From NCBI GenBank assembly GCA_963668625.2, contig CAXXKA010000005.1, positions 1-64,000 of the forward strand: DNA of 64,000 nt, read 5' to 3'. A model generated the notes under the pieces. The model worked only from the letters and a program-made list of their open reading frames with translations, was not told where the DNA came from and searched no databases. This stretch comes from an uncultured candidate division Zixibacteria bacterium. Its GTDB lineage: Bacteria > Zixibacteria > MSB-5A5 > UBA10806 > 4484-95. A program made the translations under genes and the position numbers. Position 1 is the first letter of the stretch. Each line of letters opens with the position of its first letter. Shown here piece by piece: positions 22,785-64,000 of this stretch.

Positions 22785-24005
22785 ATGTTTAGATTGAGAT
22801 ATTTGATAACGATAGTTATTACTCTTTTAGCTTTTCAGGCAATCATTTTTGAAAAAATCGACGCGGCATCATCAGTTGAAATTATCGTGCCACGGATAAC
22901 TTCATTTAACGACTCGGGCTGGACTATACTCTACGAAGAGAATTTCGATAGCGATTACGTGGCCGTTGATGGCCAAACTTTCGGTACCGATGACTGGCTT
23001 GTTTACCAGCTTCTAAATGATGGCGCAATTACGGTCGCCAACGGTTATGCCCAGCTTAACGCGCCTGATTTCTGGAACGCGGCCTTAATCAGAAGTGTCG
23101 ATATCATGCCCGAGGAGTACAAGGTCAGAACCAAAATCGGCTATATCAATTACGATTTGACCAACTACGAGCAGGAGGATTACGATGACCCCGATTTCAA
23201 TAACCATCAGGGGCATTACGAGAACGGCATGTATTTCCTGACAGTTACCGATCGTGTCTGTGTGGGAGATGAATGCGCCGAAAACTGGTGGCATTACCAT
23301 CGTAAAATGGTGATCGATGTTGACAACCATATCAACTGGGATGATCCCGGCGAGACATTTCATCCGGTTTACATGGTATATATGGCTCCGGAGGAGAACT
23401 CCGGTGGCAACCTGCTCAGAACCTGGGACGGCGAGCAGTGGGATACCTCCCCCTGGAACTGGAATACAGCTTACACTTATGAATACGATACCTGGTATTA
23501 TGCCGAGTTGGAGATATTAGATGATAGTCTTACTTTAAGGCTATACGATGGTGACCAGAATATCCTCGAGGAGACGACGCCGGTTGATCTTTCGCTGGTT
23601 AATGCTATGGATGATACACTGGAGTATCTATACCTGGGCGAGCCGCACACCGATGATTATGAGGGGGATGTTCGAATCGATGAGATCACGTTGCTTATAC
23701 CCGGCACGGGGCAGGCTATCGATGATGACGCCTCGATGCCTAAAAGATATACAATATCGCAAAACTACCCCAACCCATTTAACGCCTCGACTATTATCAA
23801 ATACGAGTTACCTCAACAGTCACGGGTCACGATCGATATATACGATATACTCGGTAAACTTGTAACAAGGCTTGTTGATGACGATCTGGATGCAGGATAT
23901 CATCAGGCAATATGGCGTGCGGAGGATGTTAATTCCGGGGTGTATTTCTATAAGATTCAAGCCGGGGATAATATCGATACCGGGCGGATGATGCTGGTTA
24001 AATAA
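22785..24005 (+). CDS. Secreted protein of unknown function (beta-sandwich-like) with T9SS CTD
   Basis: AGGAGG RBS, signal peptide and QNYPNPFNAST...RMMLVK tail; upstream TTGACA-18-TATACT at 22722-22751. Confidence 0.85.
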   Translation: MFRLRYLITIVITLLAFQAIIFEKIDAASSVEIIVPRITSFNDSGWTILYEENFDSDYVAVDGQTFGTDDWLVYQLLNDGAITVANGYAQLNAPDFWNAALIRSVDIMPEEYKVRTKIGYINYDLTNYEQEDYDDPDFNNHQGHYENGMYFLTVTDRVCVGDECAENWWHYHRKMVIDVDNHINWDDPGETFHPVYMVYMAPEENSGGNLLRTWDGEQWDTSPWNWNTAYTYEYDTWYYAELEILDDSLTLRLYDGDQNILEETTPVDLSLVNAMDDTLEYLYLGEPHTDDYEGDVRIDEITLLIPGTGQAIDDDASMPKRYTISQNYPNPFNASTIIKYELPQQSRVTIDIYDILGKLVTRLVDDDLDAGYHQAIWRAEDVNSGVYFYKIQAGDNIDTGRMMLVK

Positions 24006-24042
24006 GCGGTAGATGAGTAGAGACTGTCTTAAAAGTATGGTT

Positions 24043-24140
24043 CCTGTGGCTGGCTGGCGTCCTCGTCCACATGCTTTTGTTAGCAGTCGGGACCAGTTGG
24101 GGCACCACCGGGGCAAGCTAGGAGGTACCCCACGTGTCTT
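24043..24140 (+). repeat. Dispersed ~95-bp intergenic repeat, copy A
   Basis: Colinear blocks CCTGTGGCTGGC...GTCCTCGT...GTTAGCAG...CCACCGGGGCA...CGTGTCTT are shared with 35938-36027. Confidence 0.7.
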
Positions 24141-24289
24141 TTTGGACAGCTTCAGGACTTTGCCACCTACGACTAAACGCCGACCTATATAGTTTAATAG
24201 AAATATTCGATTTGAAATGTTATATATGAGTAGTGATTTATTTAAAAGACTCACTGAGCCGGAAGGAATCCTGCTATGTATCATGTCAA

Positions 24290-24560
24290 GTGATATTGTT
24301 CGGTTAGTATTGTTATATCGATTTCTCCTTTTCTTAATAAAACGCAGAATACCCATGTTTAAACTACAACATGCTGCCACTGTTAGACATTGCCGATAAT
24401 AGTCACCCTGCTATTCGTGGTCTGGCCCTCAAACACAGCCACAATTAATCAATCCGAGATTATTACCAGGGGAGATGACACCCTTTCCTGCGCGGTCTGT
24501 TGTTAAGCCACAAGGATTCCTTCGCCATTCTCCAAACTCAGATATTGTAAACTAATTATC
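24290..24560 (-). ncRNA. Candidate bridge/seek RNA region in the IS right end (boundaries approximate)
   Basis: Contains 8-11 nt segments matching the target flank and both element junctions (see findings). Confidence 0.55.
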
Positions 24561-24566
24561 TCTTTT

Positions 24567-25625
24567 TTATGCTGCGGTTTGGATTCGATAGCTCTGATGG
24601 TCAAGCATCAGACGCCGTACGATTAACAGTAGACGGCGGGCACTGGCCACAATGGCTCGTTTGGAACCACACCGCCACTTGAGCTGTTGATAACGCTGAG
24701 CCTGGGCCGGATCCTTCCTGATCAAAATCCAGGAGGCTTCGATCAGATTCGACCGTAACTGCGGTTTGCCGATCCTGGTGATTCGTCCTAGTCGAACCTT
24801 GTCACCGGAGGAATATTGGCTTGGAGTCAAGCCCACGTAGGCGGCCAATTGGCTTCCTCGACTAAATCGGCTGAAGTCCCCTAACTCCAATAATAGTTCC
24901 ATCGCCGTTAACAAGCCGATGCCCGGAACACTACGTAGACGCTCAACCGCTTCCCGATAACGATCCAGTTTTGACAATTCTTTCAATAACCGTGTCTGTT
25001 GAGTAATCAATTCACTCACCAGCCGATACTGTGTCAGTAACCTCTGAAAACTCTCTGTCTGCCAGCGATCACTAAAACGCAACTGCCATAAATGCTGTTC
25101 GAATGTCTCCGTCCACTTGCCGCTAATTGTCGGCAGAGATAGACCGAAACAGGCTAACTCACTCTTGATACGGCATTGAATACGGACCCGGTCGCTGACC
25201 AACTGGCGACGGCGACGCAATACCTGGCGATGACCACGCGCTTCGACATCAGGTACCCATACTGCCTTGAGCATACTACGGGAAAGTAGTAAAGCAAGCT
25301 TGGCACTGTCGAGGCGATCAGTTTTGACCCGATTGCCGTATTCAGAAGGAATCAAACTCGGCGGAGTCACTATACATGACGCTCCCCAGGCTACCAGTTT
25401 GTCATATAACCAGAAACCACTAAAACCGGCTTCGTAAACTACCGAAATGTCACAATCGGAATAACGCCCCAATACTTTTTTCAATACTTCCCAATCAGCT
25501 GCAATACTGCCTTTCCATAACTCTTGCTCAGTTGTTCGCATTGTTACATGCCAACTCCGCTTATGAACGTCAATACCAACGTAAATAGTGTTGGCTTCAC
25601 GCTCGATTTTGTTGTAACATGGCAT
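24567..25625 (-). CDS. IS110 family transposase/recombinase (DEDD RuvC-like plus Tnp domain)
   Basis: VGIDVHK, YEAG, KTDRLDS, SVPGIG and GLTPSQYSSG motifs; ATG 25625 is preceded by CAGGAGG. Confidence 0.95.
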   Translation of the reverse strand: MPCYNKIEREANTIYVGIDVHKRSWHVTMRTTEQELWKGSIAADWEVLKKVLGRYSDCDISVVYEAGFSGFWLYDKLVAWGASCIVTPPSLIPSEYGNRVKTDRLDSAKLALLLSRSMLKAVWVPDVEARGHRQVLRRRRQLVSDRVRIQCRIKSELACFGLSLPTISGKWTETFEQHLWQLRFSDRWQTESFQRLLTQYRLVSELITQQTRLLKELSKLDRYREAVERLRSVPGIGLLTAMELLLELGDFSRFSRGSQLAAYVGLTPSQYSSGDKVRLGRITRIGKPQLRSNLIEASWILIRKDPAQAQRYQQLKWRCGSKRAIVASARRLLLIVRRLMLDHQSYRIQTAA

Positions 25626-25998
25626 TTGAGCCTCCTGTTTGTTCGTGTTGATTGTTGAATGTTTGTCAAAATAACAATACAATCCGAATGACTGAGGCTC
25701 AAGCTTTTGATAACATAGTTACTTTCCTGCCGGCTGTTTTCGCGCAAAATATCGCCGGAAATTGATTCCTAGCGATGCGTAGAGCAGACTTTATCAAAAA
25801 AGCTGTCGGCAGAGATACAGTAATGCTTTTTATTGGATCGTACTGCTAATCCAATCAATTCATTTCGTGATTATTAGCGTTGGTCTGTCACGCCCCTGGT
25901 AGATGTAACCCATGAAATTCGACTACAGCTAATATTAACTGGGGCGTTCATTAACCCCCCCGTGTAGTGGCATAGGGTATTATTTTTAAAAGAGTAAG

Positions 25999-26706
25999 TT
26001 AAGCGGTAGCGCCGAGTTTTATATCGCCCTCTATCGAACCATCCTTGATCTTCACGATACGATTCCATCGCCTGGCAATGCTCATATCGTGAGTGATAGT
26101 CACAACCGAGGTGCCGCGCTCGTTTAGAGACTCGAAAAGGTTGATAATCTCACTACCAGATTTCGAATCAAGGTTACCGGTAGGTTCATCGGCCAGGATT
26201 ATATCAGGTTCGTTGGCCAGGGCCCTGGCAATTGCCACTCGCTGCATTTCGCCACCCGAAAGCTCAGTCGGTTTGTGCCCGGCTCGGTCGGCTAAACCAA
26301 CCAGTCCGAGGTTTTCCATCACTTTTTCTTTACGCAATGTTGATGGTTTGCCGGCAAAAATCAGGGGTAGCTCGACATTCTCGTAAGCGGTGGCGTAGGG
26401 GAGAAGGTTAAAATTCTGGAATATGAATCCGATCTTCTTATTACGTATATGCGAAAGCTGATGAACCCCCAACTGCGCCACGGATTCACCATCAAGATAA
26501 TACTTGCCTCCGGTGGGTTGATCGAGACAGCCCATGATATTCATCAGGGTGGATTTGCCCGAACCGGACGGCCCGATTACCGCAACCAACTCGCCGCGTT
26601 TTATCTCCAGGCTGACTCCGCCAAGCGCGGTTACCGGTATCTTCCCGGTGGTGTAAATTTTCTCTATATTTTGCAGTGAGATCAGTGTTCCGTTTTGATT
26701 CATCAT
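25999..26706 (-). CDS. ABC transporter ATP-binding protein (MacB/LolD-like)
   Basis: GPSGSGKST Walker A, LSGGE signature, [11 protein letters not shown]. Confidence 0.95.
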
Positions 26707-63490: not shown

Positions 63491-64000
63491 ATGAGGTTAT
63501 TTACCATCTTAGAACAATAATTTTAATAATATTACATAATTGCTTGACAAAATAGAATACCCTAGCGCATATTACAGCATATTGGAGCAGGCAGTTTAGG
63601 AGCAGGTTACTTTTACTTCCCCGGAGAACAAATACTTGTATGTGAAGAACAGCCGGTACTCTCGGAAAATTGCTGGCTTGAGGATGTATTATCTTGGCCG
63701 CCAAGGATTTTAATAACGAATGTCGATGTAGTATGGCCTGATGGTCGAGAGTATGAACATACAAGTTTATACGGTTGCGGGTGTATAATAGGGGAAGACT
63801 ACCAGGATACTGTACGTAAAATAAACGGACTTGGTTATATAAGGTTTATAAATAGTGGCTTTCCATATTTCTGGCCTGTTTGTGAAGGTTATATTATTTA
63901 TGATACTTATGCATTTACCTGTATGAGAACCCCATGCCAGGGCGGTGGAGGTGCATTTGAGCCAAAACAATCGATAGCTTTTACTGATTCATTATATAAT
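63491..64000 (+). pseudogene. Possible degraded or frameshifted gene running off the window end
   Basis: Frame 63566-64000 has no stop (…GYFYFPGEQILVCEE…FTDSLYN). Upstream AAGGGG-ATG 63491 (MRLFTIL) stops early. Confidence 0.3.

Follow-up and report, generated by a model that had tools for sequence, protein, structure and literature searches.

A probable RNA-guided insertion sequence of the IS1111 type and its hairpin-repeat target in a candidate division Zixibacteria genome

The RNA-guided mechanism of IS110-family insertion sequences (IS) was published in 2024. In IS621 the bridge RNA has two loops, each of which carries a guide for the bottom DNA strand on its 5' side and a guide for the top strand on its 3' side, all with a CT core, and for 93% of IS1111 elements a bridge RNA is predicted in the right end (Durrant et al., 2024, PMC11208160). 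The IS1111-type elements ISEc11, ISKpn4, ISPst6 and ISPa11 are described as having a DEDD transposase of about 340-350 aa, a non-coding region downstream of its gene and sub-terminal repeats (Siddiquee et al., 2024, PMC11187229). An element of this layout is found on contig CAXXKA010000005.1 of an uncultured candidate division Zixibacteria bacterium (GCA_963668625.2). The window analysed is the whole stretch of 64,000 nt from position 1 to position 64,000 of the forward strand, and the element occupies 24271-25723 on its minus strand, with the core dinucleotide counted at both junctions; with one core counted it is 1451 bp long. It is a further example of the published mechanism and no new mechanism or system.

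Comparison of sequences makes it very likely that this is a recently active, intact insertion sequence of the IS110 family and IS1111 type, equipped with its own two-loop guide RNA. The element is genuine and intact, and it is probably active and RNA-guided. The comparison defines its limits, its core, its target family and the structure of its RNA, and shows covariation for three of the four guide segments. RNA production, binding of the RNA to the protein, circle formation, the order of strand exchange and promoter activity would be as in the published IS621, ISEc11 and related systems. Coordinates of all features are collected in Table 1.

Recombinase, copies and core of the element

The recombinase matches PF01548 (DEDD_Tnp_IS110; E = 3.8e-16) and PF02371 (Transposase_20; E = 2.5e-27), and scores 238 bits against the NCBIfam model NF033542, 'IS110 family RNA-guided transposase', which has a cut-off of 140. 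In an alignment of the element with nine relatives (A1, 10 sequences), D19, E65, D103 and D106, the predicted catalytic residues, are invariant and GLTPSQYSSG (265-274) is kept. The latter was recognised by the GL-P----SG motif as defined by Siddiquee et al. (2024, PMC11187229), and the residues were matched by sequence alignment. A sequence search of PDB gave IS621 and ISCro4 as the only solved relatives, with the C-terminal domain alone aligning (E about 4e-9). Downstream of the gene there is a long non-coding end of 294 nt between stop codon and right end, as against 96 nt of left end before the ATG. Together with the sub-terminal inverted repeats, these features uphold the preliminary description of the window, made from the sequence alone, which had recognised an intact IS110-family element of IS1111-type layout. 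That description had also placed the host in a candidate phylum, here Zixibacteria.

Related proteins are widespread. More than 2,295 public proteins match the recombinase at E <= 1e-20 among 8,000 candidates scored. Their public names are 'IS110 family transposase' only, and the nearest named element belongs to the ISSso6 family (36% identity). Relatives whose recombinase gene is accompanied by the RNA described below occur in records labelled Ignavibacteria, Deltaproteobacteria/Syntrophobacterales, Desulfobacteraceae, Neomarinimicrobiota, Calditrichia, KSB1 and Fibrobacteria, among others.

Five full copies are present in the host genome, on five contigs, each exactly 1451 bp when cut between the conserved ends. 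Four of them are identical, and the fifth (C1) carries a single C>T, by which a G-C pair in helix P1 of the RNA becomes G-U. In all five the frames are open, the ends intact and both loop-1 segments of the RNA kept. They lie in one orientation at the same AG of five different repeat units, and AG alone is common to both junctions. Could they instead be a dead or domesticated set, amplified by recombination among the repeat units rather than by transposition? Contigs of three public runs (one sample) that carry this DNA, none of them recorded as an RNA run, compared over 23900-26100, contain no circle junction and no empty site, and a solo right end on C6 would also fit such a history. These contigs contain a repeat-collapsed IS unitig with loose ends equal to the flanks of the other copies, and are uninformative on activity either way. 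Against a dead set stand copies that differ by no more than one base and that were inserted precisely, with frames and ends intact, at the same dinucleotide of different units on five contigs, and we consider this explanation highly improbable. An orthologous empty site is not readable because the intergenic site is not conserved; the flank 25724-26500 matches nine other genomes of the family only within an ABC-transporter gene (72-75% identity).

The solo right end (locus L006, G000:C6:578611-578679) is 69 bp long, 99% identical to the element and 2 kb from the full C6 copy. Its left side joins the right flank of one repeat unit, and its right side stops at the AG + GATTCCC of another. Either a deletion or recombination between copies left it behind.

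The repeat that is interrupted resembles the repetitive extragenic palindromic (REP) sequences. Unoccupied copies of GAAAGGATTCC number at least 41 in the host genome. Almost every one lies in the loop and the upper part of the stem in a hairpin repeat, of which ggtgtcagGAAAGGATTCCtgacacc is an example. As judged by alignment, the target is the loop of this REP-like hairpin, that is, the AGGA loop and the adjoining stem (...GGCAGGAA-AG-GATTCC...), and the REP-like hairpin repeat is the natural target of the element.

The core was placed by comparing the five occupied sites with the 41 unoccupied units. In transposase orientation, left junctions read ...GAA-AG followed by TAACTATG..., and right junctions ...CATAGC-AG followed by GATTCC..., or by GATTTT in one copy. 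Since occupied sites align base for base with unoccupied units on either side of GAAAG|GATTCC, the core is CT/AG. Between the C6 site and an empty unit on C3, for example, 28 of 28 bases on the left and the first 13 on the right are identical. Two relatives, L059 and L048, have unoccupied CCCACAGCAAGCTGTGGGG units in their flanks, and their occupied sites are split after ...GCAAG.

This placement replaces the core CCTGC proposed in the preliminary description, and with it two dependent statements. The sub-terminal inverted repeats, thought to lie about 7 nt and a few nt from the core, are 1 nt (right) and 3 nt (left) from AG, and the predicted circle junction contains four surplus bases (GAAA). 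The apparent CCTGC is explained by a CAGG that precedes GAAAG in three of the five targets and looks like the right end's GCAG; it is absent in the C1 and C4 copies. A core of CCTGC, or an IS start at AAAGTAAC with the canonical 7 + 3 extensions, was rejected, as it leaves the repeat unit four bases short relative to the 41 unoccupied units. The sub-terminal repeats themselves, CTATGTTATCA (25708-25718) and TGATACATAG (24274-24283), share 10 matching positions with one extra base. The outward TTGACA announced for the right end is in place at 24284-24289 (minus strand). With the AG core, it would lie 17 nt from TATGTT in a circle, whereas the rejected model would put these candidate -35 and -10 boxes 21-22 nt apart.

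The repeat family has an invariant centre, GGAAAGGATTCC, and at least three arm subfamilies (ggtgtcag.., gccgtcgg.. and agcaggaag..), and its outer parts are conserved as GCATGAAA.. on one side and ..CTCAGTGA on the other. A copy lies within the window at about 40486 (minus strand), and clusters occur at G000:C8:173341-177739 and G000:C6:578588-578772. Some copies alternate in orientation with a spacing of about 100-125 bp, like BIME/REPIN clusters. The CAT in GCATGAAA was considered as a start codon, with the hairpin as a 5' leader, and this was rejected: none of the 41 units starts an open reading frame (ORF) of at least 100 codons, against 9.7% of random controls. One empty unit, at G000:C8:130346 (..GGCAGGAAAGGATTCCTTCC..), matches both target guides of the RNA perfectly, and only about 170 bp separate it from the C8 copy; perfect targets therefore stay empty beside an IS copy.

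A two-module RNA and its guide segments

In 13 relatives (52-77% protein identity), conserved and variable blocks alternate along the 3' non-coding end. From these ends and that of the element itself (14 sequences), a structure was derived with RNAalifold and manual inspection. In the RNA, which begins about 26 nt past the transposase stop codon, helix P1 is followed by internal loop 1, hairpin P2, a linker, helix P4, internal loop 2 and hairpin P3. Across the 14 sequences 89.4% of cells are paired, compared with 73.3% in column shuffles and 31-51% with slid partners, and double (compensatory) changes are seen in 21 of 31 pairs. With 47 distinct sequences the figures are 87.4% and 26 of 31, in an alignment that was fitted to covariance model R1 and is thereby biased towards the structure. 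Helix P4 has only 70% of its cells paired because of the alignment register. Model R1 matches the RNA five times in the host genome, and its 58 matches in the 69 sources searched are invariably downstream of a recombinase gene. A scan of 23800-26200 against Rfam 15 (E up to 10) returned three chance-level miRNA/snoRNA matches only, leaving the RNA family unmatched. The structured guide RNA that had been predicted for the non-coding end is thus supported by covariation in homologues.

The stretch between the RNA and the right inverted repeat (24290-24385, minus strand) is enlarged by about 80-100 bases in the element and its two closest relatives (L039-L041), where other relatives have about 25. 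This stretch holds a GCAG...CUGC hairpin followed by GUUUUAUU, and the two may form a terminator.

By analogy with the described systems, the DEDD recombinase would be co-transcribed with the 155-nt RNA, which would fold into the two modules. Loop 1 would read the target, namely the AGGA loop and neighbouring stem of the REP-like hairpin. Loop 2 would read the element's own joined ends: its 3' segment would pair with the right end and core, and its short, imperfect 5' segment may pair with the core and the left end's first bases. The shared AG (CT) would be the site of recombination, which would proceed via a circular intermediate and without target duplication. Once circular, the element would have TTGACA of its right end and TATGTT of its left end at the spacing given above, and the two would form a promoter across the junction, as in published relatives (PMC11187229, PMC12288879).

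In loop 1 the right-target guide lies 5' of the left-target guide, an order also seen in relatives, and the latter would pair with the target's bottom strand. Both matches had been noticed from the sequence alone. The strings confirm AGGATTCCTTC at 24513-24523 as reverse-complementary to 24262-24272. CTTTCCTGC at 24483-24491 is likewise present and equals 25722-25730, but this stretch lies wholly within the target, so that the segment is a left-target guide and not a copy of the IS junction. Its supposed imperfect continuation into the left flank (GCGGTCTGTT / CGGCTGTT) is a feature of the window copy only; the other four left flanks differ, and the stretch is the 3' strand of helix P2. Nor does the comparison support guides of unusual length, as had been suggested: they reach 12 and 10 nt in the window copy, the sites of the other copies match less, and the right-flank run averages 7.4 nt in relatives. 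When the 277-nt 3' non-coding region was subjected to 2000 dinucleotide shuffles and compared with flanks and ends, the 11-mer was attained in 2 of the 2000 and the 9-mer in 24.

At the same two loop-1 positions, relatives carry quite different sequences, each fitting its own flanks. For the right-target guide, 38 distinct guide/flank combinations (30 distinct guides) give a mean longest exact run of 7.39 in the own flank and 3.43 in foreign flanks, and in 33 of the 38 no more than 5% of foreign flanks are as good. The corresponding values for the left-target guide are 5.94 and 3.06, from 33 combinations with 21 distinct guides, and 24 of the 33 pass the same 5% mark. Loop-1 segments therefore change with the flanks in about 30 differently targeted relatives, the guide-target covariation for which the preliminary description had suggested looking. 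These data also bear on the possibility that the internal matches are relics without guide function, for instance of a REP-like target copy that the element captured or that was once nested in it. It is true that the loop-1 segments correspond to the two halves of a palindromic repeat unit that is abundant in the genome. However, a relic would hardly be replaced at the same loop positions by unrelated segments in relatives with unrelated targets, and the segments are separated by a covarying hairpin, enclosed by a covarying helix and intact in all five copies. We regard a relic as exceedingly improbable.

In loop 2, the right-end segment AAUAGCAG follows P3 in the register in which the left-target guide follows P2, and in each of them the core AG occupies positions 7-8. 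Its variable sixth base agrees with the right end in all eight distinct pairs, in which C, G and T are used. The same relation holds in a plasmid-borne ISSso6-family element, with AAUAUCAG in the RNA against CATATCAG at the right end. For the 5' segment of loop 2, a good fit to the left end is seen in L072 and L088, both of which have altered left ends, and in a delta-proteobacterial group. As a guide to the left IS end it is a weak candidate, and this fourth guide is unproven.

Several observations weigh against this reading of the element and its RNA. Folding of the 3' end gives a divided result: the matches sit in internal-loop segments of the consensus structure, but single-sequence folding is no better than shuffles (z = -0.33 for 319 nt and z = -0.73 for 155 nt). 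In the minimum-energy fold of the 155-nt RNA, the right-target guide is paired through its 3' part with a portion of the left-target guide because the target is palindromic, and the guides are then not simply single-stranded. A promoter scan gave one promoter-like site on the plus strand against 3.1 expected, and on the minus strand none upstream of the RNA. The guide/flank rows come from related elements and are not independent events, and rows without a detected end were dropped (13 of 57 distinct rows had no right junction). Some flanks fit poorly: the run is 4 in both L070 and L065, where 24% and 41% of foreign flanks, respectively, are as good; L048 matches only with a 3-nt offset; and the left-flank run of L086 is 2. 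Core pairing in loop 1 occurs in two registers: the core of most relatives (CAG class) pairs with a CU that overlaps the first base of P2, and that of the window element, L072-L075, L077-L080 and L089 (CAAG class) pairs one base further 5'. Where 7 bp on the left and 3 bp on the right are published as terminal extensions for IS1111, the element has TAA (3 nt) and C (1 nt), respectively, beyond the AG core; the right one is readable as 3 bp if the core is counted with the right end (CAG), and the left one is not readable as 7 bp. In the donor loop, the match of CCTGCTAT at 24407-24414 to the right junction (24270-24277), also noted in the preliminary description, is present and covaries in relatives, but by itself is not above chance: the 7-mer within the element is attained in 443 of the 2000 shuffles, and the 8-mer ATAGCAGG occurs three times in the window against 1.8 expected. 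It is credible because of its position in the RNA and the covariation in the family only. For the left end, about four of five positions in the window copy fit the core + TAA, a fit reached in 1415 of 2000 shuffles and so not above chance, and the segment does not follow an A>C change in L076, L049 and L051.

Some of the donor-loop figures would also fit a target-only seekRNA. Here module 1 (about 80 nt) alone would guide DNA, module 2 would be a protein-binding scaffold or processing signal, the protein would read the ends via the sub-terminal repeats, and the right-end match would be a by-product of conservation. A short seekRNA of 82 nt alone supported movement of ISEc11, and end recognition is left open in the account given there (PMC11187229). 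In addition to the weak left-end segment, without covariation in three relatives, and the chance-level right-end match, the loop-2 segment and right end hardly vary within the family, and covariation can therefore give only limited evidence. Yet the sole varying position co-changes in RNA and right end in every pair, over three bases and likewise in the ISSso6-family element, the right-end segment keeps the exact register of a guide, and L072 and L088 have changes in the 5' segment that match their altered left ends. We consider a target-only RNA unlikely, and a two-loop RNA that reads both target and donor remains our preferred interpretation.

Leader hairpin and neighbouring sequences

Upstream of the recombinase gene, a leader hairpin covers the GGAGG ribosome-binding site (Table 1). 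Its minimum free energy is -25.5 kcal/mol (z-score -3.84), and equal stability was reached in 1 of 200 shuffles. Both arms are invariant in 13 of 13 aligned relatives and are therefore without covariation. The hairpin may limit translation of read-through or junction-promoter transcripts.

Table 1. Features of the element and of the repeat unit that it interrupts (window positions; P, helix).
Feature	Position	Strand	Remarks
Left-junction core dinucleotide	25722-25723	-	AG in transposase orientation, CT on plus strand
Right-junction core dinucleotide	24271-24272	-	From the same comparison: the only bases common to both junctions and the unoccupied units
Left sub-terminal inverted repeat	25708-25718	-	3 nt from core; kept as AACTATG in relatives
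Right sub-terminal inverted repeat	24274-24283	-	1 nt from core
Outward TTGACA	24284-24289	-	Right end; TTGAC and its fixed distance to the end conserved in relatives
TATGTT, candidate -10 box of circle-junction promoter	25712-25717	-	Conserved in relatives
Transposase/recombinase gene	24567-25625	-	352 aa; stop codon included; most plausible ATG chosen; the one long ORF of the region
Leader hairpin	25626-25702	-	Pairs UUGAGCCUC with GAGGCUCAA; covers GGAGG ribosome-binding site
Bridge / long-seek RNA	24386-24540	-	155 nt; R1 109.8 bits; two stem / internal-loop / hairpin modules
Helix P1	24523-24533 with 24471-24480 (whole 24471-24533)	-	Encloses loop 1 and P2 hairpin; 8/10 pairs compensated (14 sequences), 9/10 (47 sequences)
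Right-target guide	24512-24523	-	Loop 1, 5' side; complementary to top strand A + core AG + GATTCCTTC; 12 nt in window copy
Helix P2 hairpin	24506-24512 with 24491-24498	-	Inside P1
Left-target guide	24482-24491	-	Loop 1, 3' side; sense of GCAGGAA + core AG + G; 10 nt
Helix P4	24459-24463 with 24396-24400 (whole 24396-24463)	-	Encloses loop 2 and P3 hairpin; 6/7 pairs compensated
Candidate left-end donor guide (weak)	24444-24458	-	Loop 2, 5' side; expected core + left end
Helix P3 hairpin	24436-24443 with 24416-24424	-	P3 97% paired, its inner helix 86%
Right-end donor guide	24407-24415	-	Loop 2, 3' side; AAUAGCAGG against right end ...CATAGC + AG; repeats ATAGC + AG (+G)
Left half of interrupted REP-like target	25724-25745	-	Ends ...GGCAGGAA before core; aligns base for base with unoccupied left halves
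Right half of interrupted target	24248-24270	-	GATTCCTTCCGGCTCAGTGAG...; aligns with unoccupied right halves, CTCAGTGA tail included

Two further observations concern surrounding sequences. In a deltaproteobacterial relative (L055:2586-2891), a full RNA and right end, the latter a T variant (..ATAGTAG), are directly followed by a second, partial RNA that consists of module 2 only and is a C variant; it resembles what would be left of an insertion, tandem or nested, by a related element. The gene upstream of the insertion in the window (22785-24005, plus strand) encodes a 406-aa protein, the C-terminus of which we take to resemble a type IX secretion sorting domain.

Comparison with described systems

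The element adds a cleanly delimited natural example of an RNA-guided recombinase of the IS1111 type from a candidate phylum, with an exact core, five occupied sites, unoccupied targets and an RNA backed by covariation. It could serve as another orthologue for bridge-recombinase engineering, and it offers material for asking how IS1111-type elements recognise their ends.

The ISSso6-family element has a weak R1 match at the same position (14.9 bits, E = 4e-4), its name being taken from RefSeq annotation. Presumably the ISSso6 family is close to ISEc11. Among the IS1111-type systems described by Siddiquee et al. (2024, PMC11187229), seekRNAs lie downstream of the gene and have the complement of the top strand 5' of that of the bottom strand, as in the RNA of the element, which at 155 nt falls within the range of 145-170 nt given for 'long seekRNA'. 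ISPa11 also targets REP sequences, and a junction promoter is expected in these systems, as is proposed here (PMC11187229). The sub-terminal repeats have lengths reported for IS1111, which are 7-17 bp (PMC11208160) and usually 11-13 bp (PMC11187229).

ISPpu9 and ISPpu10 of Pseudomonas putida are IS110-family elements that also reside in REP sequences, recombine at an invariant AG and form circles, as is proposed for the element. They are set apart, by their description only, as members of the IS110 group with a bridge RNA upstream, extra small RNAs and modular circles (PMC12288879).

IS621 and the element share two internal loops and a REP hairpin as target; as proposed for the element, the first loop of IS621 is for the target and the second for the donor, with one segment per DNA strand and the core dinucleotide in each segment (PMC11208160). 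Unlike that of IS621, the RNA of the element lies downstream of the recombinase gene, not upstream, and the order of guides is therefore reversed relative to the gene. The element further differs in its long sub-terminal repeats and in a left-end donor segment that is much weaker. When the element is viewed on the plus strand, however, its core reads CT. Loop 1 then has its longer 5' segment in the sense of the left target and core, which is the IS621 arrangement, and its shorter 3' segment antisense to the core and right target. Also as in IS621, the RNA gene then lies in the end of the IS next to the left target. We tentatively suggest, as a possibility somewhat short of even, that the 'reversed guide order' of IS1111 is the IS621 architecture read from the opposite DNA strand and not a different mechanism, and that the RNA in this clade (Zixibacteria, Ignavibacteria, Thermodesulfobacteriota, Calditrichia and others, a large and mostly uncultured set) would then be a full four-guide bridge RNA and not a target-only seekRNA. 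Relative to IS621, only the direction in which the RNA and recombinase genes are transcribed may be inverted with respect to the crossover site.

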